Source: Escherichia phage vB_EcoP_ShWW44. Taken from it: 64,000 nucleotides of DNA. The stretch's first letter is position 1. The number at the start of each line of letters is the position of its first letter. Location of the stretch: sequence record PQ900156.1; one strand, 5' to 3'. The notes under the pieces are model-generated. The model did not search any database, was not told where the DNA came from, and worked only from the letters and a program-made list of their open reading frames with translations. This document shows positions 1 to 43,100 of the stretch, piece by piece. The translations under genes and the position numbers were made by a program.

Positions 1-5
1 GCTGG

Positions 6-56
6 GGCTACACCCTTACACTCAACTCCCCCCCCCGGTATGTTGACGGTGTAGCC
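6..56. repeat. 9-bp inverted repeat (GGCTACACC / GGTGTAGCC) enclosing a C9 homopolymer tract (28-36) at the window/genome left edge
   Basis: Perfect reverse-complement 9-mers at 6-14 and 48-56 read directly; nine consecutive C at 28-36. Confidence 0.5.
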
Positions 57-83
57 ACTACCCTACCCCACCTTACACGTTAC

Positions 84-98
84 ACATGCTCCGCATGT
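84..98 (+). promoter_or_regulatory. N4 vRNAP-type hairpin promoter (stem ACATGC / loop TCC / stem GCATGT)
   Basis: Inverted repeat with 3-nt loop; core GCTCCGC is the reverse complement of the N4 early promoter core GCGGAGC as recalled; followed by TATGGA; sits upstream of first ORF. Confidence 0.6.
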
Positions 99-140
99 TA
101 TGGACATGTCGTCCTATCATCAACTATTGGAGCTATCATC

Positions 141-464
141 ATGACTACTCAAGCTACTGTACGTATGACCGCAGGAACTTTACTTGGTACTGTTAACTCA
201 GCTGCTACTACTGTTGCAGATACCTTTGGTACAGCAACTAAAGCAGTAGGTATGCTTAATTCATATGTTAGTACTATGGCAGAGAAACAAGCCATTCGTA
301 CTAAATTAGAAATGCATACATTCGTAAACAAATTAGCTGAAGAAACAGCTATGAATGAGACTCTGCGTAAGAAAAGTATTGAGGAATTCTGCAAGGATTC
401 AGAGAACGCTCGTATCTATAACGCAGAATATTCCAAAGTAATTGACATCCTGACTAAAGACTAA
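141..464 (+). CDS. hypothetical early protein (107 aa)
   Basis: ORF with GGAG Shine-Dalgarno upstream of ATG; downstream of hairpin promoter; followed by terminator. Confidence 0.55.
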   Translation: MTTQATVRMTAGTLLGTVNSAATTVADTFGTATKAVGMLNSYVSTMAEKQAIRTKLEMHTFVNKLAEETAMNETLRKKSIEEFCKDSENARIYNAEYSKVIDILTKD

Positions 465-472
465 GTCACCTA

Positions 473-499
473 GGAGACTCTTCGGAGTCTCCTGTTTTG
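473..499 (+). terminator. rho-independent terminator (GGAGACTC-TTCG-GAGTCTCC + TGTTTTG)
   Basis: Perfect 8-bp stem, tetraloop, T-rich tail immediately after stop of 141..464. Confidence 0.7.
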
Positions 500-554
500 A
501 ACATTAGATAGATAATCAAAAGTAGATAACTATCTACTTTAGGAATAGAAAATC

Positions 555-884
555 ATGACTAAATTCCGTTGTATCAAAGGCAATTGTGACATTCCTGTTG
601 GAACAATTATTGAAGGAGAACTTAAGGGTGAATATATAATTCTCACTAAGGATTCTACTATTCTAATGGGAGAAAAGCCTATCTTTGAGAAAGGAGAACC
701 AGTTAAGTTAACTGGTTACGTATGGCAATGGGAAGCCTGTGAAGATAAGGAAGAACTACTGGAACGTTATGAGAAAGCTGTTCGTGCCCATGAAATGCTT
801 GGTGCTCAAGACCCGGAAGATTGGTCTGGAATTGAGGAAGAGTATGAATCTGCTAAGGCAGAATTGCTTAAACGTTTGTCTTAA
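555..884 (+). CDS. hypothetical early protein (109 aa, acidic C-terminus)
   Basis: ORF with AGGAA RBS; early-region context. Confidence 0.55.
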   Translation: MTKFRCIKGNCDIPVGTIIEGELKGEYIILTKDSTILMGEKPIFEKGEPVKLTGYVWQWEACEDKEELLERYEKAVRAHEMLGAQDPEDWSGIEEEYESAKAELLKRLS

Positions 885-890
885 AAACCG

Positions 891-903
891 GAAGCTCCGC
901 TTC
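891..903 (+). promoter_or_regulatory. N4 vRNAP-type hairpin promoter (GAAGC-TCC-GCTTC)
   Basis: 5-bp stem / 3-nt loop; reverse complement GAAGCGGAGCTTC matches the N4 early promoter hairpin as recalled; followed by TATTGGATAC. Confidence 0.7.
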
Positions 904-937
904 TATTGGATACATTTCAACCAATTAAGGAGCATCC

Positions 938-1153
938 ATGAACGTAAAATCTATCCGTATAATTGAGAATTGCTTTAGTGATAAACCAGTAGACCTCAGC
1001 AACTCAAGAAGGTCTACAGATAAAGAATATAAAGAGTTTCTATCCTTACTCGATGAATATCGTATGCAAGGGCATGTTGAATTACATGCCTTTCTGCATA
1101 ACTCAGGCTACTTCATGGACAAACTGGAAGCTAAAACAGGTTGTCCATTCTGA
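938..1153 (+). CDS. hypothetical early protein (71 aa)
   Basis: ORF with AAGGAG RBS just downstream of hairpin promoter. Confidence 0.5.
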   Translation: MNVKSIRIIENCFSDKPVDLSNSRRSTDKEYKEFLSLLDEYRMQGHVELHAFLHNSGYFMDKLEAKTGCPF

Positions 1154-1160
1154 AAACAAA

Positions 1161-1173
1161 GACGCTCCGCGTC
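1161..1173 (+). promoter_or_regulatory. N4 vRNAP-type hairpin promoter (GACGC-TCC-GCGTC)
   Basis: 5-bp stem / TCC loop, followed by TTATGGATGA similar to the other copies. Confidence 0.65.
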
Positions 1174-1281
1174 TTATGGATGATGTAAATGCATCCACTA
1201 ATCATTGAACTTTTATCTTTTTGTTTGGGTGTTCTCACCGACGAGTTCACCCGTAAATCACATAAATCTGGAGAGTACAAA

Positions 1282-1662
1282 ATGTCTATTCAAAAATTCA
1301 CTTTCGGTCAATCTAACAATGCTGCTACCACTGCTAAAGCTGACAAACCAAAAGCTCAGTTCTGGTTGAACATTGGTTATGTAGCTAATGAAGGCTCTGA
1401 TGATGAGAAATTCATCTCATTGCCTACTGGTATTCCACTGGATACTCAGGAACCGCTGCCTACTAATAGCAGCAATGCTGACTTCCGTGCTATGCGTTGT
1501 GCACAGAATGACTTGCTGGAACAGTTAATCGAATATGCTCAGAACCTGGAACCAGGTGAAGAAGGTATCATTAACCTGCAAGTTCAACTTCGTCGTGTGA
1601 AAGCAGAGGCTGCTGACATCCCAGCAGACGAGAATAAATATGCTCGTAAACTGACTTTCTAA
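1282..1662 (+). CDS. hypothetical early protein (126 aa); start moved to internal ATG with GGAGAG RBS
   Basis: Track ORF 1189..1662 starts inside promoter-proximal sequence without RBS; ATG at 1282 has strong SD. Confidence 0.5.
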
Positions 1663-1672
1663 TCAACTACTA

Positions 1673-1700
1673 GACTCCCTTCGGGGAGTCTTTTATTTTT
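1673..1700 (+). terminator. rho-independent terminator (GACTCCC-TTCG-GGGAGTC + T-run)
   Basis: Stem-loop plus TTTTATTTTT directly after stop. Confidence 0.7.
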
Positions 1701-1805
1701 AACTAGACGATAAGCTATTTCTACTTTTTGAGTCTCTTTAGACGAAGGGTACTGAAACAGTAACCAGATAGATATAGATTTATATTAGATGAAGGAGTAA
1801 CCATT

Positions 1806-2102
1806 ATGCGTACAATATGTAACCGTTATAACTCACAGAAGTTGATTGTTACGTTACAACCGTGGGGCAGCAAGATGTCACTAAATGCTCGTTGGCAAGT
1901 ATCTGTAAAAGATGAAAATGGTCAGTGTTATGACCACTTCTTTGCAGCTAAACCTACTCGTAAACAAATTAGTAAACTTCACAAAGTACGTAAGCATTAC
2001 TTACTTAGTAAATGCTACGAATGTGGCAAAAGGATAGAACTGGGTAAAGAATTTACCTTAGATGACTTAAACTATGCACACGCTGACTGCCTAAAAGGAT
2101 AA
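1806..2102 (+). CDS. small Cys/His-containing (zinc-binding-like) protein (98 aa)
   Basis: ORF with GAAGGAG RBS; CYECGK ... HADC motif. Confidence 0.5.
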   Translation: MRTICNRYNSQKLIVTLQPWGSKMSLNARWQVSVKDENGQCYDHFFAAKPTRKQISKLHKVRKHYLLSKCYECGKRIELGKEFTLDDLNYAHADCLKG

Positions 2103-2106
2103 GACT

Positions 2107-2325
2107 ATGTTGGACTTCATTGCGTTTGTAATACTCTGCTATGTGCTATATCGCCTACGTGGTTACATCCTCAATGGAGCCAAGTGGATAATTACTAAGC
2201 TGGTACTTATCTGTAAGTTACCAGTTGTATTAGTTAAGTGTTTGTTTGCTTCCATCATAGCTAAAGAGGTGCGTAAACAACTATGGGCTAAGGAAGCAGA
2301 AGACTATGTTAAGAGGAACCAGTGA
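2107..2325 (+). CDS. small hydrophobic membrane protein (72 aa)
   Basis: ORF; hydrophobic N-terminal half. Confidence 0.45.
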   Translation: MLDFIAFVILCYVLYRLRGYILNGAKWIITKLVLICKLPVVLVKCLFASIIAKEVRKQLWAKEAEDYVKRNQ

Positions 2326-2471
2326 TGAATTATTCAGAATTGTGGCTTAAGTTTTATGAAGATTGGCTTAGTGCTGTATCTGGTAGACGCACCGAAGGTG
2401 ATATGAACCGGGCAAAGGAATTTGCAGATAATTGTATAAAGTCACTGAAGGAACCAGATGATATTCACTAA
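2325..2471 (+). CDS. small ORF (48 aa), ATGA stop/start overlap with upstream gene
   Basis: Below the track length cutoff; read manually; coupling-type overlap. Confidence 0.3.
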   Translation: MNYSELWLKFYEDWLSAVSGRRTEGDMNRAKEFADNCIKSLKEPDDIH

Positions 2472-2634
2472 CATAGAAGATGCCATTGAAGAGTGTATCT
2501 TTCGTAGGACCACTGGTGTACAGAAAAGACACTACGGTGTTGTACAACAAGGCCATCAAATGGTTGTAAGAATTGTACGTAACAGTAAACCTTCACGTAT
2601 TATGTGGAGTACTAAATCATGCGTAAGTCATTAA
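2458..2634 (+). CDS. small ORF (58 aa)
   Basis: Manual read; AAGGA RBS upstream of ATG; fills otherwise ORF-free gap. Confidence 0.3.
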   Translation: MIFTNIEDAIEECIFRRTTGVQKRHYGVVQQGHQMVVRIVRNSKPSRIMWSTKSCVSH

Positions 2635-2750
2635 TCATGGGAACCAGAGAAGACGTACAAAAGATGAAAGAACGTCTGGCTGCAAAGAAACAGTCATCTG
2701 AACCAGTACGTAAGATTGTTACCTTCAATCATCCAATATTAGGAAACTAA
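2619..2750 (+). CDS. small ORF (43 aa)
   Basis: Manual read; fills gap before 2753 gene. Confidence 0.25.
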   Translation: MRKSLIMGTREDVQKMKERLAAKKQSSEPVRKIVTFNHPILGN

Positions 2751-2752
2751 TC

Positions 2753-2965
2753 ATGTATTTCGTAATCTTTGTAGCACTAATGTATCTGAACGTTTGGCTC
2801 ACTAATGTAGCAGGTAATATTACTAAAACTTTGTCTACTAATAATGATGCCAGAGGTTTTGCAATATTTGGTTATGTTACTGCATTAACCAAGGGATTGA
2901 GCATAGGCTATGGCTTATGGTTCATATACTATTGTGTAGTCAATTTCCCATATTCATTTATATGA
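2753..2965 (+). CDS. small membrane protein (70 aa)
   Basis: ORF with AGGAA RBS; two hydrophobic segments. Confidence 0.5.
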   Translation: MYFVIFVALMYLNVWLTNVAGNITKTLSTNNDARGFAIFGYVTALTKGLSIGYGLWFIYYCVVNFPYSFI

Positions 2966-3025
2966 ACTGGCCTATTTCAATAGCCATGTTTGTACTGTTA
3001 ACCTACAGTGCATTAGTAGAACTGG

Positions 3026-3057
3026 GAGTCCTCCATTAGGAGGGCTTCTATTTTTTA
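3026..3057 (+). terminator. rho-independent terminator
   Basis: CCTCC-ATTA-GGAGG stem-loop followed by TATTTTTTATT. Confidence 0.55.
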
Positions 3058-3099
3058 TTCTTGAATAGTTAGATATGTATTTAAACAGGAGAAATTATC

Positions 3100-3414
3100 T
3101 TGAATGAAATTGTTTGTATACTTCCTCATTCAGCTAAGATAGCTGACCGGAATATACGTATCCACTTACCATTTCCACTAAGCAATCCATTCACTCGTAA
3201 TGAAAGAACCACAGTAGAGGATGTAGAGGTAGCTTATGAAGCTTACCTTCGTAATCGTCTTATTAGTGGTGACAAACTAATTACAGCAGAGATGGAAAGG
3301 ATTGCATCCTTTGTAACAGATAGTACAGGTAAGCCTGTTGGCCTAATTGGTACTGAATCTGATGTTAACGTTATTCGTAAAATACTAATGGAGGCACTCG
3401 GTGAACAATCTTAG
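3100..3414 (+). CDS. hypothetical protein (104 aa), TTG start
   Basis: ORF; AGGAG 8 nt upstream of TTG. Confidence 0.45.
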   Translation: MNEIVCILPHSAKIADRNIRIHLPFPLSNPFTRNERTTVEDVEVAYEAYLRNRLISGDKLITAEMERIASFVTDSTGKPVGLIGTESDVNVIRKILMEALGEQS

Positions 3415-3646
3415 TGATGTCATCATAGATAAAACAATATTAGTGAATCCCAAAGGGTATGCCTGGTTCATGCTAAAGCATACCCGTAAGGTATATGTTA
3501 GAAAAGTATATATACGTAACTTTGGTAAGTTATCTTACAGAGAAGTACGTATTAATAATGAGATGTACTTTCTAGATGAGTCAGTGATTATCAAATCAAC
3601 CGAAGACAGAAAAGCCCCTTACTTTAACTATTACGGATTCAAGTAA
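3401..3646 (+). CDS. hypothetical protein (81 aa)
   Basis: ORF overlapping upstream gene by 14 nt. Confidence 0.4.
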   Translation: MNNLSDVIIDKTILVNPKGYAWFMLKHTRKVYVRKVYIRNFGKLSYREVRINNEMYFLDESVIIKSTEDRKAPYFNYYGFK

Positions 3647-3647
3647 A

Positions 3648-3869
3648 ATGCTGTTCAGCACTAATTATGGTATTTGCCCGATTTGCAATAAAGGAAGAGG
3701 AGTTGCTAATCATAAGAAGTGTAGTCGTATTCTACAGAAACAACGGAACCAGAAAGAATGGGCTAAGGTATTGGAAAACCAACACAAAGATGAGTTCAAG
3801 AAGACAGCTGTTAAGGCATCTACTCAGCTCATTCGTCGTACTAACTTCATAGAAGGCTACCAGAAATGA
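3648..3869 (+). CDS. small Cys-containing basic protein (73 aa)
   Basis: ORF; CPICNKG ... KKCSR motif. Confidence 0.45.
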   Translation: MLFSTNYGICPICNKGRGVANHKKCSRILQKQRNQKEWAKVLENQHKDEFKKTAVKASTQLIRRTNFIEGYQK

Positions 3870-4222
3870 AACTAATCATAGCCGGTGGAAGAGACTTCGT
3901 AGATACCAATCGTATGATTGAGGAACTACAGAAGTTAGTAAATTCAGGGAATATACCTGAATGCCCAGAATTAGTATGTGGTATGGCTCGCGGAGCAGAT
4001 ATATTAGCATTCCGTCTATGGAAATCTGCAAATATGCAGATACATGTATTCCCTGCTGAATGGGATACCTATGGCAAGTCTGCTGGATTCCGTAGGAATA
4101 AAGAAATGGGTGAATTTGCAGATGCTGCTGTATGTTTCTGGGATGGTAATTCCAAAGGAACCAAGCACATGATTGATATCATGAATAAGCTAAATAAACC
4201 TGTATACGTCGTGAGGTATTAG
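3866..4222 (+). CDS. SLOG/DUF2493-like Rossmann-fold nucleotide-binding protein (118 aa)
   Basis: Motifs IIAGGRDF, GMARGADILA, EWDTYGKSAGFRRN, WDGNSKGT resemble the SLOG (YspA/DprA/LOG-like) family as recalled; ATGA overlap with upstream ORF. Confidence 0.55.
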   Translation: MKLIIAGGRDFVDTNRMIEELQKLVNSGNIPECPELVCGMARGADILAFRLWKSANMQIHVFPAEWDTYGKSAGFRRNKEMGEFADAAVCFWDGNSKGTKHMIDIMNKLNKPVYVVRY

Positions 4223-4480
4223 ATGATTATTACATACCCTACAGGCAGACTGTGGAATTATATGAAGCATACTATTGCAATGCCTCATTGGGTTAAGTAT
4301 ATAGCGTTATTACTACGGACATATAAGAGTGCCAACACCTCACTGATAGGATTCTCAAGAAAGCCTAAGCTAACAGAAAACAATATTTGGGTATCCTCTG
4401 GGAGACAAGAAGAGATTGGTTTCTGTGATTATGAGTATGTCGATGACATAACTTATGGGACATTGGAGAAGGTGAAGTGA
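4223..4480 (+). CDS. hypothetical protein (85 aa)
   Basis: ORF in operon-like array. Confidence 0.45.
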   Translation: MIITYPTGRLWNYMKHTIAMPHWVKYIALLLRTYKSANTSLIGFSRKPKLTENNIWVSSGRQEEIGFCDYEYVDDITYGTLEKVK

Positions 4481-4791
4481 AAACTATTTTAGTAGTTCAT
4501 GATTCTACATTTACTGATGTAGATAAAATGATGCGTAATATTGATTATGTATCTCAAACAAGCCAAGCATTCAATGAAGAGTTTACTCTGTACTGCAATG
4601 CTGAATCTCCTCTGGTTCCTATTCTTAAGGAGTCAGGTCTACCATTCTCTACAGAGAACTTCCCGGAAGAACCAGACTATGTAATCTCATTTATCTATGA
4701 CTTACATGATGGTTCTGAAACCAGTGAATTAGCTATGAACCAGTGGCGTAGTAAACGTCCTGTGTTCGCATTTCAGGTACTTAAACCATGA
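4477..4791 (+). CDS. hypothetical protein (104 aa), GTG start overlapping upstream stop
   Basis: ORF. Confidence 0.45.
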   Translation: MKTILVVHDSTFTDVDKMMRNIDYVSQTSQAFNEEFTLYCNAESPLVPILKESGLPFSTENFPEEPDYVISFIYDLHDGSETSELAMNQWRSKRPVFAFQVLKP

Positions 4792-5168
4792 AGATTATGT
4801 CATTAGGTGACGACACCAATGCTTTACTTGGTGTATCTGCACGTCCAATCATCATTGTTAATAAACATCACGGTAAATCTGGTGAATATATTGGGCGTGG
4901 CTCACCATTAGGCAATCCATTCGTTATTGGTAAAGACGGTTCAAGAGAACAGGTTATAGCCAAGTATCGAGTATGGCTTAATGAACAAATCATGAGAAAG
5001 AATCCAGTTGTACTGGATGAACTTAATCGTCTTGGTAATAAAGCTATTGACGAAAAAGGATTAGCCTTACAGTGCTTCTGTTACCCAAAACCATGTCATG
5101 GTGAGGTTATTAAAGAGAAGCTAGTAAAAGCTATGTATAACTACTTTGTGGAGAATCCTAATGGATAA
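4788..5168 (+). CDS. DUF4326-like protein (126 aa)
   Basis: Motifs IVNKHH, YIGRGSPLGNPF, YRVWL, CFCYPKPCHG match the DUF4326 pattern as recalled; ATGA overlap. Confidence 0.55.
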   Translation: MKIMSLGDDTNALLGVSARPIIIVNKHHGKSGEYIGRGSPLGNPFVIGKDGSREQVIAKYRVWLNEQIMRKNPVVLDELNRLGNKAIDEKGLALQCFCYPKPCHGEVIKEKLVKAMYNYFVENPNG

Positions 5169-5346
5169 ACAATGCAAATGTGGTAAAGGCCATGTATCCC
5201 AATGGGATGGTAAATGTGGTCATTGCCGAACCAAGAAGGAACAGAAAGACCACGAACAAGCTCTTGATTATATAGAAGTAATCCGTGAATACTACAGTAT
5301 GACCAGACGCGATGCTTATATTTATAACAGAGAAGGGGGTAAGTGA
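5161..5346 (+). CDS. small zinc-ribbon-like protein (61 aa)
   Basis: CKCGKG ... CGHC motif; start moved to ATG with GGAG SD. Confidence 0.45.
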   Translation: MDKQCKCGKGHVSQWDGKCGHCRTKKEQKDHEQALDYIEVIREYYSMTRRDAYIYNREGGK

Positions 5347-5693
5347 AAGAAATCTTAGTATTCACTACCAATACACTTGGGCAGCATACTAATGCTGCTG
5401 CCAAATTAGCTTATAAGAAGCACGGTGCTCGTTGGGGTATGGCCTATGGTCATTATGGTAATAGCTTTGCTATTCCAGTAAAGGATGGCAATGGTAACCG
5501 AATTAAAGAAGGTGCTATCTATGGCTTCATTGAAGGCTTTATTGCATATGCATCTTCTAATCCACAGTGGGATTTCAAAGTCATGAGTAATGATTATCTG
5601 GATCCATACCAATTCATTAATGTCACAGGCAACGTGCTGTTACCGGAAGCATGGCGTAAACACTTAGGTGATGCTTACAACTACTGGAGTTAA
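5343..5693 (+). CDS. hypothetical protein (116 aa)
   Basis: ORF, GTG start overlapping upstream stop; Gly-rich motifs of unknown family. Confidence 0.45.
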   Translation: MKEILVFTTNTLGQHTNAAAKLAYKKHGARWGMAYGHYGNSFAIPVKDGNGNRIKEGAIYGFIEGFIAYASSNPQWDFKVMSNDYLDPYQFINVTGNVLLPEAWRKHLGDAYNYWS

Positions 5694-5695
5694 TA

Positions 5696-5956
5696 ATGAC
5701 TTATGAAGAATTATGGTCTGCTCAAGTCAGAGCCAGAGCACTTACACGACATGACATCTATTGTGCATTACAGAACGAATCAAAGAGTCGTACTAAGCTG
5801 GGTCACGTATCTGGTTTCATCAAAATACCTATGACTAGTCTAGTATGGCCTTATAAGAAGAAATGTAATGAGTTTAATGGTAATGGTTTGCATGTACGTA
5901 TTTATTACCTTGGCGATGAAAATAGTATTCGTATTAACTTTTGGACTAAGCGTTAG
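5696..5956 (+). CDS. hypothetical protein (86 aa)
   Basis: ORF. Confidence 0.45.
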   Translation: MTYEELWSAQVRARALTRHDIYCALQNESKSRTKLGHVSGFIKIPMTSLVWPYKKKCNEFNGNGLHVRIYYLGDENSIRINFWTKR

Positions 5957-5961
5957 GTAAT

Positions 5962-5976
5962 AGCTGCTCCGCAGCT
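5962..5976 (+). promoter_or_regulatory. N4 vRNAP-type hairpin promoter (AGCTGC-TCC-GCAGCT) upstream of the RNAP II genes
   Basis: 6-bp stem / TCC loop with the same GCTCCGC core; immediately upstream of the RNAP1 leader. Confidence 0.6.
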
Positions 5977-5978
5977 TT

Positions 5979-6004
5979 TGGTTATTAATCACATTTAGGA
6001 GAAT
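5979..6004 (+). promoter_or_regulatory. conserved leader motif TGGTTATTAATCAC..TTAGGAGAAT (copy 1, upstream of RNAP1)
   Basis: Near-identical to 31718-31744 upstream of the SSB-like gene. Confidence 0.4.
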
Positions 6005-6009
6005 ATGCG

Positions 6010-6828
6010 ATGTACTCATCTATTGAACATCAGAAGCGACTTGAAATCCTTTTCAACAAAAATCAATTACTACCTCGCATGAGGAAGGAATTCGAGGACT
6101 CCGAAGAAATTGACTTTAAGGCATTCGCTGCCTATTCGGAAATTGATTATAAGCTGCTCATTGATGCAATGGTGCAGATTGCCCTACATAAACGTGCTGA
6201 CATTCAGACTATGATTGGCTCTCTCATGAGTCACTCAGATGATGCTCAGTACATCGCTGACTGTCTGTATAAGATGGCAGAGAATGACTGCTTCAACTAT
6301 GACCCTACCATCGACAAGTTCGGTGTTATTTATGAGATTAGTGAAGATGTACAGATGGAACTGGAAGCATTCCAGTATCCATTGCCTATCGTAAGTGCTC
6401 CTAAGCCTGTTCTGTGTAACCGTGATACTGGTTACTACGAAAGCAGAGGTAGCATCATCCTCAAGAAGAACCATCATGAGATGGATGTCTGTCTTGATCA
6501 CATCAACCGTATGAACAATCAACGTCTCTGTATTAACTGGGACGTTGCTAACTATGTAAAAGACTCTCGTCCTAACATGGATAAACCCAAAGAAGGTGAA
6601 ACCCGTCAGGACTATGAGAAACGTGTTAAAGCCTTTGAGAAGTACAGTCGTACAGCTAAGGAAGTAATGGAGCTAGTGACCAAAGAAGGTAATAACTTCT
6701 CACTGGCTCACAAGTATGACAAACGTGGGCGTACCTATGCCTGTGGCTACCACATCAACTATCAGGGAACCAGTTACAACAAAGCTGTGCTGGAGTTCGC
6801 TGATAAGGAGCTAGTAAATGAAGACTAA
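6010..6828 (+). CDS. RNA polymerase II small subunit-like (N4 RNAP1-like), 272 aa
   Basis: Position directly upstream of the T7-like RNAP catalytic subunit, as in N4; no independent motif confirmed. Confidence 0.55.
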   Translation: MYSSIEHQKRLEILFNKNQLLPRMRKEFEDSEEIDFKAFAAYSEIDYKLLIDAMVQIALHKRADIQTMIGSLMSHSDDAQYIADCLYKMAENDCFNYDPTIDKFGVIYEISEDVQMELEAFQYPLPIVSAPKPVLCNRDTGYYESRGSIILKKNHHEMDVCLDHINRMNNQRLCINWDVANYVKDSRPNMDKPKEGETRQDYEKRVKAFEKYSRTAKEVMELVTKEGNNFSLAHKYDKRGRTYACGYHINYQGTSYNKAVLEFADKELVNED

Positions 6829-7036
6829 CATTGGCTCCTATGAACTATGGGTTAATGAAGAGTGTGTCTACTCAGGTACATATGTGAAGTGCTTATACTT
6901 TGAGAAGCTTTACAAGCTTCAAAACCCTAAGAGTAAAACCATTATTTATAAACTATCTGCCGACGTAGTAACTGGCTAATCCATCCAATAAGCAGGCTCT
7001 CCATAGTGGAGAGCCAAGAAGCAAAAGGAACATAAA

Positions 7037-8254
7037 ATGCAACTGTTAACCGCTCGTGAATACCTGAAAGTAGATATCGCTAATAACTATGGCTTAGATA
7101 AGAAGACATGGGATGAACGTATTGCCTGGTTCGATGAGAACGAAGCTAACCTGCTTAATCTGGTAGATGAAGCAGAGGATTCTGCTCTATTCTTTGCAGG
7201 CATAAATGCATGGAAAGATATGAAAGCTGGTAAGCCTATTGGTTATGCCGTAGCTCTGGATGCTACATCGTCAGGCTTGCAATTGCTGGCTTGTCTGACT
7301 GGTGACCGTTCTGCTGCTGAACTGTGTAACGTAGTTAACTACATGGGCGAGAATGGTAAGCCATTACGTCGTGATGCTTATACAGTCATCTACCATAAGA
7401 TGCTGGATATCCTTGGTGAAGCATCACGTATTAAACGTAGTGACACTAAGCAGGCAGTTATGACTGCATTCTACGGCTCAGAAGCCAAGCCTAAAGAAGT
7501 ATTCGGTGAAGGTATTCGTCTCAAGACTTTTGAGAATGTAATGGAAACTGTTGCTAGTGGTCCTTGGGCACTTAACAAGTTCTTACTGCAATGTGGTAAC
7601 CCGGACGCCAACCGTTACATATGGATACTGCCTGACAACTTCCACGCTGTCATTAAGGTCATGGTTCCAGAGGTACAGACTGTTAACTTCTTAGGTAAAC
7701 CGTTCGACATCACTCGTATGGTTCAGGGTACTGAAGAGAAGACTCGTATGCTCTCTGCTAATATCACTCACTCTATTGATGGGATGGTGGTACGTGAGAT
7801 GCTACGTCGTTGTAACTTCGACCGTGACTTAGTAGAAGCTGTGCGAGAACTCTGTGATGAAGGTCCATCAGAATATGGGGAGATTGCAGGTAATCTGGAG
7901 AAGGTACAAGAGCTATGGAGCCATTATGAGAAATCTGGCTTCTTATCCGTATCAATCCTGGATTATCTTGACCCATGCACTATTGCTTATGTAGACCGTC
8001 AGGTAGTAGCAGATATGATTGACACTATGCCTAAGAAGCCATTCCCTGTAATGACTGTACATGACTGCTTCCGTTGCCATCCTAACTACGGTAATGACTT
8101 GCGTCGTCAGTATAATCAGATTCTGTCTGATATTGCTAAGAGTGACTTGCTTGGATTCATTCTGTCTCAGGTACTGGGACAAGAGTTCTCTGCTGGTAAG
8201 CTGGATGACAGCCTCTGGCAGGACATTCTGGAGACTGATTATGCATTAAGTTAG
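7037..8254 (+). CDS. T7-like single-subunit RNA polymerase catalytic subunit (N4 RNAP2-like), 405 aa
   Basis: Motif A-like LDATSSGLQ, motif B-like RSDTKQAVMTAFYGS, motif C-like VHDCF. Confidence 0.85.
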   Translation: MQLLTAREYLKVDIANNYGLDKKTWDERIAWFDENEANLLNLVDEAEDSALFFAGINAWKDMKAGKPIGYAVALDATSSGLQLLACLTGDRSAAELCNVVNYMGENGKPLRRDAYTVIYHKMLDILGEASRIKRSDTKQAVMTAFYGSEAKPKEVFGEGIRLKTFENVMETVASGPWALNKFLLQCGNPDANRYIWILPDNFHAVIKVMVPEVQTVNFLGKPFDITRMVQGTEEKTRMLSANITHSIDGMVVREMLRRCNFDRDLVEAVRELCDEGPSEYGEIAGNLEKVQELWSHYEKSGFLSVSILDYLDPCTIAYVDRQVVADMIDTMPKKPFPVMTVHDCFRCHPNYGNDLRRQYNQILSDIAKSDLLGFILSQVLGQEFSAGKLDDSLWQDILETDYALS

Positions 8255-8261
8255 TAAACTA

Positions 8262-8294
8262 GCCTCATTCCTTCGGGAGTGGGGCTTATTTTTT
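8262..8294 (+). terminator. rho-independent terminator
   Basis: CCTCATTCC-TTCG-GGAGTGGGG hairpin (G-U pairs) + CTTATTTTTTC. Confidence 0.6.
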
Positions 8295-8494
8295 CTTTGG
8301 AGGTAGCAACTATGCTAATCACTTTTGAAGTAATCTTTCAGTTAATACTGATAGTTTTATCTGTACTGGTTCTGGCTACGATAGTCCGTGCCCACAAGTC
8401 TAAGTTTGCTTACTGCTACTATGGGGCATACTCACTAGGCTGCTTTGTAATGGCAGGATGGATAGCTTTTGCTATCTACTGTGTAAACAACTAA
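8279..8494 (+). CDS. small membrane protein (71 aa)
   Basis: Two hydrophobic helices; overlaps terminator tail, so uncertain. Confidence 0.35.
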   Translation: MGLIFSLEVATMLITFEVIFQLILIVLSVLVLATIVRAHKSKFAYCYYGAYSLGCFVMAGWIAFAIYCVNN

Positions 8495-8520
8495 CCCTCT
8501 TAACGGAGGGTTTATTTTTT
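8493..8520 (+). terminator. rho-independent terminator (AACCCTC-loop-GAGGGTT + T-run)
   Basis: Read directly. Confidence 0.6.
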
Positions 8521-8567
8521 ACATGTCATGTATACTAATCCTGCTATTTACTTATGAGGAAATTGAT

Positions 8568-9401
8568 ATGCCAACTTTGAAAGTAGGTTTTAACAAAACC
8601 ACTAATGTTGCAACTGTACTGGATGCAGGTGGTTCTATTCCAGGTGGTTCCGTAGAAGTAGGTACTTTTGTACACCCGGATGCCACTTACCCTGATAGCT
8701 TAGTTATCTATCATGGAGTTCGTGATCTGTTGTATAAACGCTCTGCTAAAAACCCTGCTGAAGAAGGCTTCTGGCCTAATAACATCGTGGATATGCAGTC
8801 TATCTCTATTGATATGAAAGCTACTCCACGACTGACTGTCGCTACCAAACTGTCTCGTGTAGTCTCCGCTATCGAAGGTGAAGACATTAACTGGCATGTT
8901 GATGTAGCAGGTGGTAAAGCACCATTTACTTATAAATGGCAATTCAAAGTTGATACCGTTGGTGCAGCATTCGCTGATATTAGTTCCAGTACTAACCCAT
9001 CTGCTGCTACTGCAACGCTGACTCTTAAAGACATAACAGCTGCTTCTGCTGGTACTTATAAAGTGATTGTTACTGATGCTAATGGAACCACTGTAGAAGA
9101 TGAGTCACTGCTGGCTGTAGGCTATTACGAAGCAAGCTCCCTGGTAGCTACTCCTGCTTCACTGGCTCTGTCTGTTGCTGACGATCTTGCTGCTGGTAAA
9201 ACCGTAACCATTGCTGCTATGCCTGTTGGTTCTTCTGCTGGTACTTTGTCTATCAAGACTGCTCCAGATTCTGCTCGTGCTACGGCTACCATTGCTGGTA
9301 ACGTACTGACAGTTAAACCAGTGGCTGCTGGTGAAGCTACTTCTGTAGTAGTTACCAATGGTACGGTCGATGTAACTATCCCTGTTACTGTTGCAGAATA
9401 A
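8568..9401 (+). CDS. Ig-like domain protein (possible N4 gp17-like capsid decoration protein), 277 aa
   Basis: Ig-like segments (FTYKWQFK ... AGTYKVIVTDANGTT; BIG2-like C-terminal part); position after RNAP2 as recalled for N4 gp17; start at ATG with GAGGA SD. Confidence 0.5.
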   Translation: MPTLKVGFNKTTNVATVLDAGGSIPGGSVEVGTFVHPDATYPDSLVIYHGVRDLLYKRSAKNPAEEGFWPNNIVDMQSISIDMKATPRLTVATKLSRVVSAIEGEDINWHVDVAGGKAPFTYKWQFKVDTVGAAFADISSSTNPSAATATLTLKDITAASAGTYKVIVTDANGTTVEDESLLAVGYYEASSLVATPASLALSVADDLAAGKTVTIAAMPVGSSAGTLSIKTAPDSARATATIAGNVLTVKPVAAGEATSVVVTNGTVDVTIPVTVAE

Positions 9402-10097: not shown

Positions 10098-10329
10098 GAA
10101 ACTGTATGAAGAATACAATGACAACCGACAGCAATTAGCTAGTTTGAAGAAGTCACCACATATGGTGAAAGTATCATTCAATGGTACGGATTTAGGACCG
10201 CAAGCCCGTACAAGAATACTTCCTGAACTACTGTCCTTTTATCAAAGGAGGGTTGCTGTTTTAGAGAAACGCTTTGAACATTTAGGTGTAGATTTATCAC
10301 ATCTTCCAGATGAAGGAGAAGATGAATGA
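10069..10329 (+). CDS. hypothetical protein (86 aa)
   Basis: ORF with GGAG SD. Confidence 0.45.
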   Translation: MNIHNLRLVEKLYEEYNDNRQQLASLKKSPHMVKVSFNGTDLGPQARTRILPELLSFYQRRVAVLEKRFEHLGVDLSHLPDEGEDE

Positions 10330-22559: not shown

Positions 22560-23870
22560 ATGTTTTCCAAACCTACCAAAGCCCCACTGAACAAGGGGCA
22601 AAAAGCGGTTGCGAAGGAGTTCTTCGACTTCCTGCTCAACCCTAATGCTACCGAATTCAATATTAGTGGCCCTGGGGGAACTGGCAAGACATTCCTGATG
22701 TCGCACCTCATTGATGACACTATGCCTGCATATATGGAAACTTGCTCCCTTATGGGAACCAAGCCCCTGTATAACGAAGTTGTTATGACTGCGACCACGA
22801 ACAAGGCTGCTGAAGTTCTGGCTCAGGCTACTGGACGTCCAACATCTACCTATCATTCCTTTCAGGGACTGATTGTTAAGAATGACTTTAAGACTGGTGA
22901 GGCTAACGTCGTACCATCTAAATCATTCAATATTAAGAAGAACAAAATCATCTTCGTAGATGAAGCATCCATGATTGACCGTCAGTTACTTAAGTATGCT
23001 CGTGAAGGTACTCACCAGTGTAAGCTGGTATTCGTAGGAGATGCTTCTCAGCTTCTGCCTGTTAAAGAGAATAAGTCTCCGGTATATGCAGGTAATATCC
23101 CAACACACTATCTGACTGAACAGATGCGTACCGATGCACCGGAACTCAAAGCATTGCACCAACAATTGCGTGATACGGTGGAAGGTAAGACGGGCTTCCT
23201 GCCTATTAAGTGTATTCCAGGCATTATTGACTGGGTACAAGAGGAAGAGATGGAGAAATTGGTTCTCAGTCACTTCACTCAACCTACTAATAGCCGTATT
23301 GTTGCTTATACGAATGACCAGGTTATTAATTACAATAACTACATTCGTGAGGCCAACGGATACGTAGGTGAGTACTCCATTGGTGAACAGCTAGTCTCTA
23401 ACTCTGCTGTTCGTTTAGGTGTGGATAATCGTCTGTCTATCGAACAGGATGTAAAACTCATCGACCAGGATAGTAGTACTCGCATGATTAAGGTTACAGG
23501 TGACCTGGAACTGGAAGTTCGTGATAGTACTCTGGACCTTGGTTATGGTGGTATTGTAAGTGAAGTTCCTGTTCCTACTGACCCAGACTACTTCAACCGT
23601 TTGGTTAAGTGGCTTGGTAAAGAGAAGAACTGGGAACCTTACTTCCGTCTTAAAGAAACCATTCCAGACCTGCGTGCTACTCATGCATGTACTGTCCATA
23701 AATCACAAGGCTCTACTTACGACACAATCTTTATTGATGCGAATGACCTCTCAAGCTGTCGCCAACCTGATATGGTTGCTCGCCTGCTTTACGTCGGTGT
23801 GTCACGTGCCCGTAAGCGAGTAGTGTTCTATGGCAATCTTGCCAGTAAGTATGGTGGTCTAACTTTCTAA
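22560..23870 (+). CDS. Dda/RecD-like SF1 DNA helicase, 436 aa
   Basis: Walker A GPGGTGKTF, Walker B VDEASMI, VHKSQGSTYDTIFID motif. Confidence 0.8.
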   Translation: MFSKPTKAPLNKGQKAVAKEFFDFLLNPNATEFNISGPGGTGKTFLMSHLIDDTMPAYMETCSLMGTKPLYNEVVMTATTNKAAEVLAQATGRPTSTYHSFQGLIVKNDFKTGEANVVPSKSFNIKKNKIIFVDEASMIDRQLLKYAREGTHQCKLVFVGDASQLLPVKENKSPVYAGNIPTHYLTEQMRTDAPELKALHQQLRDTVEGKTGFLPIKCIPGIIDWVQEEEMEKLVLSHFTQPTNSRIVAYTNDQVINYNNYIREANGYVGEYSIGEQLVSNSAVRLGVDNRLSIEQDVKLIDQDSSTRMIKVTGDLELEVRDSTLDLGYGGIVSEVPVPTDPDYFNRLVKWLGKEKNWEPYFRLKETIPDLRATHACTVHKSQGSTYDTIFIDANDLSSCRQPDMVARLLYVGVSRARKRVVFYGNLASKYGGLTF

Positions 23871-37104: not shown

Positions 37105-40100
37105 TTAGTTAGTAAGATTGAGCCAAGGGTTCAGGTTATGGGCACGCAAGCCTTGACCAAAACCGAAGGAGTAACCGAGGTTGCCCTGTGCAGCAATACT
37201 AAAGATGTTGTCCTGAATAGGCAAACCAACATTACCAAACATGGTAGGGGTTGGTGCTAACATAGCCATAGCAGCATGTACTGGGTTATTACGAATCATG
37301 GACACTGCAACTTTTGCAGAACGAATCTTAAAGTTGTAGAACCACATCAGACCAACACTTTCCATATATCCACGGAAGCGACCAGGTAAACGGTCATAGT
37401 TAATGAACTCTTCTGTTACACGTCCCAGTGCCTCTTCACGAGTCTTACCTTTACGCTGAGTCAGTTCATCATAGATGATTGCTTTAGCAATAAAGTCAGA
37501 GTACTCAACTGTCTTCTGGATACCCTGGAAGAGAGCAGTATCCTTAGGGATAAGTGCATAACGACCTGCGTTACGTACAGACTTAGGCAGCTTATCAGCC
37601 AGCTTATCCATGTACTCGTGAAGTTTACCTTCAGTAATCAGGATGTCATCACGTCCAATACCTGCGTCTGCAATTGAGGAGAACTCGCCAGCTTCCAGCA
37701 GAGGCCAGATACTTAAACGCTTATGGCTATCCGTGATGGACTGAATCTCGGCCTTCAGCTTACGAATCTGGTTCGGGTTAGTAGCTGCACGTAATTCTGC
37801 TTCTGCATCTACCTGACGCAGACGAGATTTCAGGTACTGGTTAATCTCAGCAGTCTTCTGTGGAATGCTCTTAGCAATGTTCTTAACAGGCACACCACGA
37901 GCAACCATCTGGTAAAGGTTAGCCAGGAAGTTAACAGCAGGTACAACTACTGACTTAACCACAATCAGAGTCTTAGCTTCTTTAACTAAGTTCTGAACCA
38001 GGTTCTCACCACCCATTACATACTTATAGGCACGGTTACCAAATACACCCATCATAGCTTTCTTGAAGGTATCCAGTGTTTCTGGGGACCAGCGAGAATT
38101 ACCAGACCAGGCATCACCAACAGAAGCTGCACGATAACCCAGAGCATCATTGAGCATGTCACGACGTACCCACAACTCACCTGGGCCAAACAGACTTTCT
38201 GCTTTCTGACGAGTTTCACTGTTCATCAGTTTAAGAGCATCAGCAGTCACTGGGTCCAGTTTAGAACCAAGAAGGTTAACGTACTGGGACTTATTAGATG
38301 CAGACATCTTAATGTCGTTCTCATACATGCTATGCAGGTTCTCAATCAGCATATCGTTGAAACGCTGAGCCTTAGCTTCTTCCACCTGGCGACCACGCCA
38401 TACACCGATTGCACGAGCAAGATGGTTCTCACCCTCAATATGCTTCAGCATGTTAGGGTCAATAGATTGCTCATAAGCAACTACATTACCATTGGCATCA
38501 TATACAGGCAGCAGTGGTTCATTGCCACGTTCACCACGAGCCTGTGCTTTAGTGATACGGTCTACGGAAGGCTTGTCAGTAATACGACCAGCTACCATGG
38601 TTCCCATCGTAAAGCCTGTACCAAGGTCTACACCACCAGCAGTATTTCGAACGTTCTGCAGGATACCTTGTGAGAACGGAGCCTGTGCCTGTACTGGTGC
38701 AAAGTAGTAGCTACGTGCTGGTCCACGGTTAGCAGAGCTACCTTGATATGTACCCAGACGTACATAGGATTTCTCAATCAAATCAGCAAACTGACTATCT
38801 TCAGCAACAATCAGGTTAACACCTTGCTTGCTATCACTAGGTATATATCCTTTGTACTGGTTCAAGGTTGCACGACTATCAGACTTAGCTTTAGCCATTT
38901 CATCTTTACGCTGACCAACCAGGTAAGAAGTAGCAAAGTCCATGCCTTCAATTTCTGTCTGAGCCAGTGAAGATAACACCTCACGGTCAGTCTTATTCAT
39001 TGCTTCCAGTGCATACAGCGTAATGAGTTTATCCAGTTGAGCTACATCTACAACGGAACGTGTAGTCTTACGTTCACCCAGTAAACGAGAAATTGCAGTA
39101 GCATTACGCAGCAGGTTATTACCAACCGTACCATTAATCATGTACTGAGCCAGTTGCTTAGATTTACGATTAATCAGAGGCCAGTTACGTCCAGCTTGTT
39201 TCTGCAAATCTGCTTCCAGTTTATTAACCTCACGGTCAACAATCTTTTGGTCAGTCAGCAGGTCACGGATTTCATCCAGAGACATAGTATCTCGCAGAAC
39301 AGCTAAGTCAGTTTTACCCATACCAGTATGCATTGCTTTCCACTCATCATTGGTCAGCTTACGGCTGAACTTAGATGCGATAGTGGTAGGCAAATGTTCA
39401 CGGAACTGTTGACGGTCAGCCTGTACCTGTGCACGTACTGCTTTAATCAAATCATATACAGAAGCATTGCTCTTAGTACGTCCGATTATGTCATTAACCA
39501 GGTCATGGAAAGGCTGCCATACTTTACCCTGGTTCATTGCAGCCATAACACCTTCAGCTACGATTGAACCATTCTTCTCTGTAGCAATAGCAGCTACCAA
39601 TTGTGCAGCATGAGCAGCACCTTTAACCAATGGGTTCTTGGTATTAGCTGCAACTTCACGAGCACCTTCCAAAGCACGGGTAGACAGTACATCAATAGAG
39701 TCCACCAGATACTGGTTAGCACGGTCGATAGCATTACCAGTAGGTGTAGCAACGGAATCATAGAAGGACTCTGCATTAAGACTGGTCTGCATGATTGTCT
39801 GAGCCAGTGCATCCATACCTTCCTGTACGTTAGTAGCTTTAGTATCACCTGCTACACGAGCATTCAGACTAGCCATTGCAGCAGTACCGATGTTAGTCAG
39901 CATTGCGTCAACAGTATTGCCAGATTTCTTATCTGCTTTCATAACAGGAATGTCAGCCAGTACCTTACGTACTTCTTCACTTACCATTGCCAGACCAACA
40001 AAGGTAGGCAATAAAGAAGAGCGACCCTGTGCATCAAACTCAATGTTGTTAGCACCCATGATGGTATCGAACTTCTGCTGTGCATAGTAACGGTCAGCAG

Positions 40101-43100
40101 GGTTAGTACTATCTGGGTCAGCCATGAACGATTCAACAGTTAGGTTCTTAGTAACATGTGTGTAGTATTCCTGTGCACGAGCCATAGCAGCAGGGTTAAT
40201 AGCAGCCTCAGTAGCCAGTGCAGCAACGATGTTAGTGAAGAGACGCTGTTCCTGCATATTCATGGTGAAGCCATGGGCCTGAACATCACGGGTTACTTTG
40301 GTTGCATTTACTACTGCATCAGAGAACTTACCTTTACGAATTACTTGCTGTACTGGTTCTGAACCAATGTAGTCAGTAATCAGCTTATCAAAGGTCTTAC
40401 CTAACTCTTCCAGACGAGTATTGTCACCATATGCTTTGTTATGGAACAGGGTAGTGTCTTTGGCTACAGCAGCAGTAGGAGCTTGTCCACGCATTACTAC
40501 AGCAGAGTTAAACAGTAGGCCAGAGAACATATCATCTGCATTAGCCGGAGCTTTCTTACGTCCAAATACCAGACGCTTGATTGCTTCATATACAGCCTGA
40601 ACCATAGCTTTAAGTGCAGTGGTTTTCTTCTGCTTACCAATCAGTTCACGGTTGGTTAAACCCCAGGCCATGTACTCATTTAGTGCAGCAGCTTTAGCCA
40701 TTGCTGGTTCAATAAAGCCATTGGACAGGTGACCGTTAATGGTATTGAGTGCATCAGCATATGCTTCACGTACTGCCGGAGATTCATCCTTAACATCCAG
40801 AGCACGAAACTGGTTCATCAGGTCTTCAATATTCTGAACTGCTTCATTAGGAGTACCTTCATAATGAGCCAGTACAGATTCAAAAGTAGAGGCATGTACC
40901 AACTCATGAACCAGAGTCTCTAAGGAAGGGGTAACTAAATAGATGGTCTTATCTTCAAAGTTAGTCCAGCCGTATGCATTACCAGCTTCAGCAGCTTCAA
41001 TATCTTCCGGTGCTGGGCGAGTAATATTCTTCTCAATAGCATAGGCATCCAATTGAGCAGGTGTACCATAAACAACCTTATAGTCTTTAGCAGCGAGAGA
41101 TTTCTGTATTTCTTTCAGTACTGCTTGCTGTTCAGGAGACATCTCTTTAGCCAGCTTAGAGATAGCAGTATTAGACAGCAGACGTACACCAGACTTCAGT
41201 ACACGACCAACCTGTTCCATTGCTGGTACTTCTTTCACTGGTTCTGCTTTAGTAGCACGTACTGCATCACGACGCTTGTTTAATTCAGCATCAAACAGTT
41301 CGTTTAGCTTAGCTACTTGCTGGTCTACAGTAAGACCTTCCAGAGAGATTTTACCGTTGTTCACATAAGGAGCACCAACAGCAGCCATCTGGTCAACGGT
41401 GACTTGTACCTGGTCCATTACCTTGTGACGAATATCTACACCCAAAGCAATGTTACGCAGATTGCGTTCAATTAATGCAATACCAGAATCTTTAATCATA
41501 GAAATTTTATAATCTCTATCACCATCTACTCTGGTAATCTGAGCACGCTGGTCATACTCCAGAGCAGATTTAGCGATAGCCTGTTTGGTTTCATCAGACA
41601 GTTTGCTGAAATCTACGTTCTTATGAAACTTAGCAAAGGAGTCATAAACATTCTTGATAGGATTACCCTGCCAGGAAGTATATACAGCCTCATTAGCTTT
41701 ACGACTTGCGTCAGTGATGTCATTGATACCAATGTTCATACCATCAAAGATTTTCAGGGTATTCTTCGGAGCACCTTTCATAGTAGAAAGGGTCTGCATC
41801 ATCATGCCATCACCAGTACCGATGGTCATAAACGGAATACCTGCAACACCTGCCTGTGAAGGAGCATAGATGCTCATTGGCACACGCATACGGTCATCTA
41901 AGTTGGTAGCCAATACTTGGTTAGCAACATCAGTATTCTCGCTACCAGCAATGTAGAAAGTCTGGGAACCAGTCTCAATCATTGGAGCCAGTGGAGATAA
42001 GTGATTCTGAATTTCATTCAGTTCTTTCTGAGTTAAGAAATCACCTTTCTTCCATGTTGGGTCTTTTTCTTTTTCTGCCAGTTTAGCCTGTACTGCCTGT
42101 TGGAACATATCCTGCAATACCAGTGATTGAATCTGAGTAGCCTTCTGCAAATTTTCAGTAGAGTACATCAGACCTTCACCAACAGTATTTCGGATACCAT
42201 GTCGCATTGGCTCAACGAACAAGTGAAGCATGTTCTCTTGTAAGTTCTTCAGAGCATTACCGGATACAGTAAACTTCTGAGGGTCTAATTTACCGGTCAG
42301 AGCACCTTCTACCTGCTGAATAGACAACTCACCTTTACGCATAACTGGAACATTGCCAGTTAGTGCTTCCATAGAAGTAAGGAAAGTATCCAGCATAGCC
42401 TGAGCATCGGCCTCAGACGCAGCCTCCTTACCAAACATAGCCATAGCCGGGGAAATGCTAGGGTCAGCAGCACGGGCTTGCAGAACGTCACTGAAGCGTT
42501 CATAGATGGTATCAGTAATTGCACTAACCATTTTGCCAGCAATACCACGAGCACCTGAACCATAAATGGTAATGGTCAGTGGGTTTTTAGCGATACCGCG
42601 TTTCAGGTCCAGAGTACCATCTTCCTTAAGATTGAAGTCTTTAATGAATAGGTCCATTAACTTCTGGAGATGCTTCATCTGGTTCGTAACAGGAACGTTG
42701 TTACGATAAGTATTACGCAATTCATTCAGATGCCTTTGTAGACTATTAGTGGATGCTTCATACAGGTCAACGCTGTCCTCATGCGAATGATGCTCGTTCA
42801 TAGTCTTGCCAGCTTTACCGAAGAACAAGCCACCTTTAGCAGTATTCTTAATCCAGTCTGGAGTGAACTTACCACCCGTCATTAATACCATTGCGTTGAT
42901 TGGTCCGTTGGTTACACCATCAGCTTCAACGTACAGTGGGGTATTAAAGTTGGCACGGTCATCACTGTTAAGATAACAGGCATACTCCATCAGAGCCATG
43001 AGAGCTACAAATGATTTATCATTACCCAAAGGGGTCTTCAGAATATCCACAGCATCAGTAGGTAAGTGCCCAGACTTATCAAACTCAACCATCATATCAA

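Follow-up and report, generated by a model that had tools for sequence, protein, structure and literature searches.

The first 6 kb of Escherichia phage vB_EcoP_ShWW44 (sequence record PQ900156.1), analysed here as one 64-kb stretch of DNA (the window), contain four small hairpin-forming sites. Most probably they are promoters for the virion RNA polymerase (vRNAP), the enzyme that an N4-like phage encapsidates and injects together with its DNA; we give this assignment a probability of about 0.9. It draws on the number of motif copies relative to chance, the match to N4, the genes downstream, a cognate vRNAP gene, hairpins in related phages, covariation of the stems, depletion of sigma-70-like promoters and the lack of an Rfam match. 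The four hairpins belong to a class of promoter that is well characterised, and a layout with four copies was published earlier for a relative, Klebsiella phage KP8.

The hairpins, numbered 1 (84-98), 2 (891-903), 3 (1159-1175) and 4 (5962-5976), share the form NNNGC-TCC-GCN'N'N' followed by four A/T bases and GG; pairing is perfect in each of them. All are intergenic and lie on the plus strand, like the flanking open reading frames (ORFs); the core GCTCCGC of site 1 occupies 88-94. A sequence-only reading of the window had listed these four hairpins, and all of them are present. Its description of stems of 5-6 base pairs (bp) with a TCC loop holds for sites 1, 2 and 4, but the stem of site 3 extends to 7 bp. 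Its statement that three sites continue with T(A/T)TGGA fits sites 1 and 3 (TATGGA), but neither site 2 (TATTGGA) nor site 4 (TTTTGGT): the true common downstream feature is a 4-nucleotide A/T spacer and then GG (in order of the sites, TTAT-GG, TATT-GG, TTAT-GG and TTTT-GG, extended to GGA at sites 1-3).

An exhaustive scan of the window yielded 111 perfect hairpins with a 5-bp stem and a 3-nucleotide loop; of the ones whose loop is TCC or GGA, only sites 1-4 combine GC/GC closing pairs with GG. The bare heptamer GCTCCGC is present in five copies versus 2.55 expected, which is no significant enrichment. Four of the five copies, however, are flanked by perfectly complementary triplets and then by NNNN-GG, and for such hairpins the expectation from first-order Markov simulations is 0.042 (Poisson P ~1e-7). 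Three of the four sites were also grouped as one family (D6) by an independent repeat finder. A relaxed scan of both strands, which required at least four of five pairs and obligatory GC/GC closing pairs and admitted loops of any base, then C/T, then C, detected no fifth site in the 64 kb. Two further hairpins with TCC/GGA loops, at 10300-10312 and 23508-23520, were rejected as candidates: they are devoid of the GC closing pairs, the -8G and the GG start.

The same scan of the left 9 kb of N4 finds exactly three sites of this form, which correspond to the mapped promoters P1-P3, so that the comparison suggested beforehand reveals the same element before gp1, gp2 and gp15 in both phages. N4 vRNAP promoters are characterized by a stem of 5-7 bp and a loop of 3 nucleotides (PMC4496689, review by Lenneman and Rothman-Denes). 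Their conservation spans -17 to +1, with a GC-rich heptamer centred at -11 and flanked by inverted repeats; the template bases read by vRNAP are -11A/G, -10G, -8G and +1C, and four template A's serve as a ruler, with initiation eight bases from -8 (PMC4496689). When these rules are mapped onto the window, all four sites display T(-12) C(-11) C(-10) G(-9) C(-8) on the non-template strand, 5'-GC-GGA-GC-3' as template loop and closing pairs with purines at -11 and -10, and GG exactly eight nucleotides past -8, at 102, 908, 1178 and 5980. Each published determinant (stem, loop, heptamer, -11, -10, -8 and +1C) is present at every site. The P2 template oligonucleotide in a 2026 cryo-electron microscopy paper contains CCAAAAGAAGCGGAGCTTC (PMC13492108); the oligonucleotide, whose reverse complement is GAAGCTCCGCTTCTTTTGG, matches N4 559-577, just before gp2. 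The sequence-only reading had therefore been correct in giving GAAGCGGAGCTTC as the template-strand hairpin of N4. The hairpin of site 2 is identical to that of N4 P2 in 13 of 13 nucleotides.

By flanking homology and orthology of the downstream genes, sites 1, 3 and 4 are the positional orthologues of N4 P1, P2 and P3, respectively: site 1 has the same position and flanks as N4 90-102, and the leader downstream of site 3 is homologous to the N4 P2 leader. Site 2, as judged from the same alignments, is a copy additional to N4, inside a two-ORF insertion that N4 does not have; the comparison with N4 found no homologue of either ORF 555-884 or ORF 938-1153, between which this site is placed. The earlier observation that the fourth site stands directly upstream of the genes for the middle RNA polymerase, RNAPII, of which gp15 and gp16 are the two subunits, is borne out by the orthology of the downstream ORFs. 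With orthologues of gp1 and gp2 behind sites 1 and 3, this fourth site is simply the P3 counterpart, and the one additional to N4 is site 2 rather than site 4.

Folded as single-stranded DNA, the template strand adopts the expected hairpin as its minimum-energy structure at sites 1 (-4.7 kcal/mol), 3 (-6.3 kcal/mol, z -3.3) and 4 (-5.7 kcal/mol, z -3.5), in a model that takes no account of the special stability which a sheared G:A pair is reported to lend to this type of loop (PMC4496689). The putative reader of these structures is encoded on the minus strand of the window by its only ORF of more than 900 amino acids, the gp50 orthologue; the mechanical ORF extends to 47910, and alignment to the N-terminus of N4 vRNAP suggests a start at 47892. 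In N4, vRNAP contacts the loop through K114, R119 and W129, the stem through D901 and R904, the backbone through K849 and K850, and the base of the stem through K267 and K268 (PMC4496689). Eight of these nine residues (K114, R119, W129, K268, K849, K850, D901 and R904) are identical in the window vRNAP, as are their local motifs, and the catalytic aspartates are conserved.

In related phages, the element recurs with the same architecture. All eight loci retrieved by protein homology to gp15, and hence independently of the motif, carry three or four co-oriented hairpins, even though one of them (L007) starts downstream of P1; absence from the relatives, which the sequence-only reading had named as a refutation, was not encountered. 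In each of the eight, a hairpin precedes gp15, with an inner stem of either GCTGC/GCAGC or GGTGC/GCACC, a compensatory difference. A counterpart of site 1 is present in ten related loci, and site 2 is conserved in phage St11Ph5, the nearest relative, and in L009. Between St11Ph5 and the window, site 3 differs by a compensatory double change that affects the partner bases 1163 and 1171 only (GACGC/GCGTC to GATGC/GCATC). A scan of IMG/VR with the pattern GCTCCGCNNNTTATGGA, in which bases had to match exactly and outer-stem pairing was not required, gave 97 hits that were then filtered by pairing: 22 have perfect 3/3 outer pairing, compared to ~1.5 expected, and show five different outer stems, while the other 75 follow the random distribution. 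Pooled over all loci, an alignment of 35 distinct sites selected for a perfect 5-bp stem has invariant G6, C7, T8, C10, G11, C12 and GG; 33 of the 35 have G-C as third stem pair, every one of the four Watson-Crick combinations occurs at the fourth and at the fifth pair, and the sixth pair, which was not selected for, is formed in 27 of 35. Stem identity is thus free provided that pairing is kept, and the core is fixed, as expected for recognition of a structure. With core and GG invariant, stems variable and polymerase contacts conserved, these alignments show that the rules of N4 promoters apply to the Gamaleyavirus group without change.

Three or four sites are the usual range per left end in this subfamily. 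N4, ECBP1, IME11 and pSb-1 have three; the window, St11Ph5, L009, KP8 (L019) and L083 have four; L072, a partial duplicate of L083, shows the first three, and L007, cut before P1, also has an extra site. G7C (L006) harbours as its fourth site, at 503-521 and upstream of gp1.1, the variant hairpin AACGC-TCC-GCGTT-GTTT-CG, in which the core is canonical and, where the start is predicted, CG replaces GG. A literature search that did not include the original G7C paper found no statement on promoter number in G7C or St11Ph5, and the sites are not annotated in the four public records inspected (N4, G7C, St11Ph5 and Mimir124). A terminal repeat is annotated at 1-403 in Mimir124 and within 1-1160 in G7C, whose P1 hairpin recurs near the right end of its record. 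Site 1 therefore probably lies inside a terminal repeat, and a second copy of it would be expected beyond the window. In the last 12.4 kb of St11Ph5, no further site was found when any loop was allowed and GC/GC closing pairs were obligatory.

Several points weigh against the promoter assignment or narrow its reach. Every functional step is transferred to this phage from N4: the determinants, their position and orthology, stem covariation, vRNAP contact residues, scarcity of sigma-70-like matches and terminator-like hairpins were found in the sequences themselves, and it is from N4 that we infer cruciform extrusion by gyrase, melting by the host single-stranded DNA-binding protein (SSB), hairpin binding by vRNAP, the GG start and the coupling of transcription to genome entry. 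At site 2, the nearest-neighbour model favours a register shifted by one base (-4.7 kcal/mol), the stem comprises 5 bp only, and there is no N4 orthologue. The window vRNAP has N in place of K267, which in N4 is one of the pair of lysines responsible for melting long stems at their base. The inner-pair counts of the 35 sites are partly circular, owing to the selection for pairing; only the IMG/VR scan, the loci anchored on gp15 and the comparison with St11Ph5 escape this circularity. Finally, neither ORF 555-884 nor the genes in 1806-5956 have a hairpin of their own, so that the four sites alone do not account for expression of the whole early region.

Among the alternatives, the one that survives best concedes promoter function to sites 1, 3 and 4 and takes site 2 to be silent or very weak, the remnant of a recombination between hairpin promoters that accompanied the insertion of the module with ORF 938-1153. 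The properties of site 2 just listed fit this, as does the finding that the homologues of ORF 938-1153 in G7C and pSb-1 have no canonical hairpin directly upstream. A decaying relic, however, would be expected to lose pairing, and site 2 instead combines the hairpin of N4 P2 with a correct spacer and GG and is kept in St11Ph5 and L009; the extra sites in L007, L019 (KP8) and L072/L083 likewise retain all determinants. A silent site 2 is accordingly unlikely.

Much less probable is that the hairpins are not DNA promoters but work in the RNA, either as intrinsic terminators of low strength or as elements for processing or stability. The sites come after stop codons, and a terminator scan lists 5962-5976 on the plus strand and 1175-1159 and 903-891 on the minus strand. 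Yet a GC-rich stem directly followed by a T run, the hallmark of an intrinsic terminator, was not found: the only plus-strand listing is site 4, with its 6-bp stem, and this is also the only site with four T after the stem (the tails read TATGGA, TATTGG, ATGGAT and TTTGGT). Terminators need neither the loop nor the GC closing pairs that are invariant in the 35 distinct sites, and much stronger terminator-like hairpins are found near sites 2-4 (472-498, 1672-1700 and 8261-8294). Site 1, at base 84 of the genome, has nothing upstream to terminate. In a search of 1-9000 against Rfam with E up to 1, no family matched, apart from a chance hit to a small nucleolar RNA.

Slighter still is the case for operators, palindromic sites to which a dimeric regulator of phage or host would bind in duplex DNA. 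Inverted repeats in front of genes would suit such a role, but the outer half-sites vary freely while remaining complementary, with four pair types at two positions, which is the signature of a structure and not of a sequence-specific duplex operator; moreover, the asymmetric TCC loop and the downstream GG keep one polarity relative to the genes in more than 60 sites. Chance inverted repeats, for which the unenriched bare heptamer might speak, are excluded by four perfect hairpins at an expectation of 0.042 with fixed spacer and GG, co-oriented, intergenic and conserved in relatives.

If the four sites are vRNAP promoters, early transcription could proceed as in N4 in the following manner: Host DNA gyrase would supercoil the DNA, and the inverted repeats would extrude as cruciforms. 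Host SSB would then melt the non-template arm, leaving the template hairpin, 5'-N3-5 GC-GGA-GC N'3-5-3', intact. The vRNAP would bind this hairpin via the loop purines (-11G, -10G) and the stem (-9C, -8G), measure eight bases from -8 over the A-rich template spacer and begin the RNA with GG; early transcription would be coupled to entry of the genome. The predicted starts at 102, 908, 1178 and 5980 would define four units, namely gp1, the accessory ORF 938-1153, gp2, and the RNAPII subunits gp15/gp16. In N4, gp1, gp2 and gp15/gp16 constitute the machinery of middle transcription, gp2 being a single-stranded DNA-binding cofactor of RNAPII. Rifampicin-resistant initiation by vRNAP that depends on gyrase-driven extrusion and host SSB is known only for N4 (PMC4496689).

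Table 1. Coordinates of the hairpin sites, the corresponding N4 sites, and genes and terminator-like hairpins of the window (N4 sites in N4 coordinates)
Feature	Position	Strand	Details
Site 1, putative early promoter, P1 orthologue	84-98	+	ACATGC-TCC-GCATGT, 6 bp stem; predicted start G102; upstream of gp1
Site 2, putative additional early promoter	891-903	+	GAAGC-TCC-GCTTC, 5 bp stem; predicted start G908; upstream of ORF 938-1153
Site 3, putative early promoter, P2 orthologue	1159-1175	+	AAGACGC-TCC-GCGTCTT, 7 bp stem; predicted start G1178; upstream of gp2
Site 4, putative early promoter, P3 orthologue	5962-5976	+	AGCTGC-TCC-GCAGCT, 6 bp stem; predicted start G5980; upstream of gp15/gp16 (RNAPII)
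N4 site before gp1	90-108 (hairpin 90-102)		GTTGC-TTC-GCAAC-TTAT-GG
N4 site before gp2	559-577 (hairpin 559-571)		GAAGC-TCC-GCTTC-TTTT-GG
N4 site before gp15	4548-4566 (hairpin 4548-4560)		GCTGC-TCC-GCAGC-TTTT-GG
gp1 orthologue, first early gene	141-464	+	67% identity to N4 gp1; downstream of site 1
gp2 orthologue	1189-1662	+	68% identity to N4 gp2 over 161 amino acids; downstream of site 3
gp15 orthologue, RNAPII subunit	6010-6828	+	65% identity to N4 gp15; downstream of site 4
gp16 orthologue, RNAPII subunit	7037-8254	+	67% identity to N4 gp16; Pfam RNA_pol PF00940 (domain of single-subunit RNA polymerases), E 6e-14
vRNAP, gp50 orthologue	37105-47892 (start by alignment)	-	67.5% identity to N4 vRNAP, 70% in mini-vRNAP domain
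Terminator-like hairpin after gp1	472-498	+	AGGAGACTC-TTCG-GAGTCTCCT then GTTTT; read from sequence
Terminator-like hairpin and T-run after gp2	1672-1700	+	terminator scan
Terminator-like hairpin and T-run after gp16	8261-8294	+	terminator scan

The surroundings of the hairpins fit an early region that is not read by host RNA polymerase. In 1-9000, sigma-70-like promoter matches are depleted (4 versus 27.0 ± 5.3 in shuffles), and terminator-like hairpins are enriched (19 versus 5.0 ± 2.2). Terminator-like hairpins close the gp1, gp2 and gp16 units; the one at 472-498 does not appear in the list of the terminator scan, apparently because its extended stem shortens the T tail. A small ORF (6818-6979) lies between gp15 and gp16. 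In the middle of the early region, a strong terminator-like hairpin (3023-3050) with a T-run occurs within 3023-3056, and the approximately ten ORFs in 3100-5956 are without a hairpin promoter of their own; their transcription must therefore come from read-through or from another type of promoter. Between the gp1 terminator and ORF 555-884, four TAGATA words are clustered within 32 bp (505-536), including the inverted repeat TAGATAACTATCTA, and this cluster might belong to an AT-rich middle promoter; as a second motif after terminators, TAGATA showed no window-wide enrichment (52 versus 47).

The window comprises the left end and most of the genome of a Gamaleyavirus, an N4-like phage of the G7C group. 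It aligns to St11Ph5 (Gamaleyavirus; Enquatrovirinae, Schitoviridae) over 1-8000 with 94.1% identity and over 39001-64000 with 95.0%, in both cases at the same coordinates and as one gapless piece; as the match starts at base 1, the first base of the window is the left end, as deposited, of a G7C-like phage related to N4, and this is the end that is injected first. Differences from St11Ph5 are patchy, with 0-65 per 250 bp, and third codon positions account for 283 of the 438 coding mismatches. A gapless alignment at identical coordinates is unusually free of indels for 94-95% identity; an artificially mutated sequence was considered and rejected, as the third-codon bias, the patchy divergence and the compensatory stem change speak for natural divergence. 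Near the extreme left end there is a run of nine C at 28-36 (ctcaactccccccccccggt), and positions 28-29 are two of the few non-coding differences from St11Ph5.

Two mildly new leads, and only two, emerge from the comparison: the mosaic interval between gp1 and gp2, and conserved hairpins at the 5' end of the predicted P1 and P2 transcripts. The interval (465-1175 in the window; also compared in L003, L005, L006, L008 and L009) is mosaic. Directly after the homologue of ORF 555-884 stands P2 in L003 and L005, and the extra hairpin in St11Ph5, L009 and the window; the G7C and pSb-1 homologues of ORF 938-1153 are not directly preceded by a canonical hairpin of their own. Most hairpins other than P1 are immediately preceded by a stop codon and AAAAC(C)A. 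The vRNAP hairpin promoters may thus also act as junctions at which small early-gene modules are shuffled among Enquatrovirinae; if true, this would explain the copy number of three or four and the occurrence of the same hairpin before different genes. An analogy is offered by T4-type phages, in which small early ORFs are flanked by promoter-early stem-loop (PeSL) cassettes; these regulatory elements are short and conserved, and apparently function as junctions at which gene modules are shuffled. PeSL cassettes differ in that they combine sigma-70 promoters with terminator stem-loops, and for the recombination role of the window hairpins they provide an analogy only.

The predicted P1 and P2 transcripts would each start with a hairpin exactly at +1, GGAC-ATGTC-GTCC at 102-114 and GGATG...CATCC at 1178-1196. 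In relatives (L010 at 2704, L072 at 4681), the P2 leader shows a compensatory change from GGATGC..GCATCC to GGATTC..GAATCC; neither the P3 leader nor that of the extra site contains a hairpin at +1. The +1 hairpins may be functional RNA elements, with possible roles in the release of nascent RNA from the single-stranded template, in protection of the 5' end or in gating the translation of gp2. That the promoters serve as shuffling junctions and that, separately, the +1 hairpins are functional is, taken jointly, a tentative proposition that we consider rather doubtful. The ATG of gp2 at 1189 lies only 11 nucleotides past the predicted start, within the +1 hairpin, and has no Shine-Dalgarno sequence; a good one, GGAGAG, belongs to an in-frame ATG at 1283. 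Even so, all relatives, N4 among them, conserve the 31 N-terminal codons of gp2 at the protein level, and two isoforms of gp2 or an unusual mode of initiation are possible.

Compared with known systems, the four sites are closest to N4 P1-P3, with which they share the stem of 5-7 bp, the 3-nucleotide loop, the non-template core GC-T(C/T)C-GC, the 4-nucleotide A/T spacer, the GG start and the placement before gp1, gp2 and gp15; the inner stem of N4 P3 is identical to that of site 4. Differences are the number of copies (four versus three), the P1 loop (TCC in the window, TTC in N4), the outer stems at P1 and P2, and the nature of the functional assignment, which is mapped by experiment in N4 and inferred in the window. 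For KP8, four putative promoters P1-P4 have been tabulated, of which P3 and P4 precede the homologues of gp2 and gp15 (PMC6950046, Table 1); their sequences are those of the L019 sites 91, 964, 1227 and 5965. They have the same form and the same four positions (before ORF1, an accessory ORF, the gp2 homologue and the gp15 homologue) but differ in stems, accessory genes and genus, and they are likewise predictions only. In Pseudomonas phage LUZ7, which belongs to a distant N4-like genus, nine early start sites were mapped by ONT-cappable-seq (PMC9163698); hairpins with 3-nucleotide loops, starts at a G placed at constant distance from the middle of the hairpin and a variable number per genome recur there, whereas the core sequence is different, stems have at least 4 bp and some early starts are without a hairpin (PMC9163698). 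The T7-type single-subunit RNA polymerases belong to a homologous family and have in common the specificity loop, the intercalating hairpin and an upstream element (PMC4496689); T7 promoters, in contrast, are duplex sequences of ~23 bp, and the N4-type promoter is an extruded single-strand hairpin that, in N4, requires gyrase and SSB. The comparison provides a ready annotation for this genome and for close relatives of it, with four early units and the predicted starts given above; the understanding of N4-type transcription is unchanged, as three, four and nine such promoters have already been described for N4, KP8 and LUZ7, respectively.

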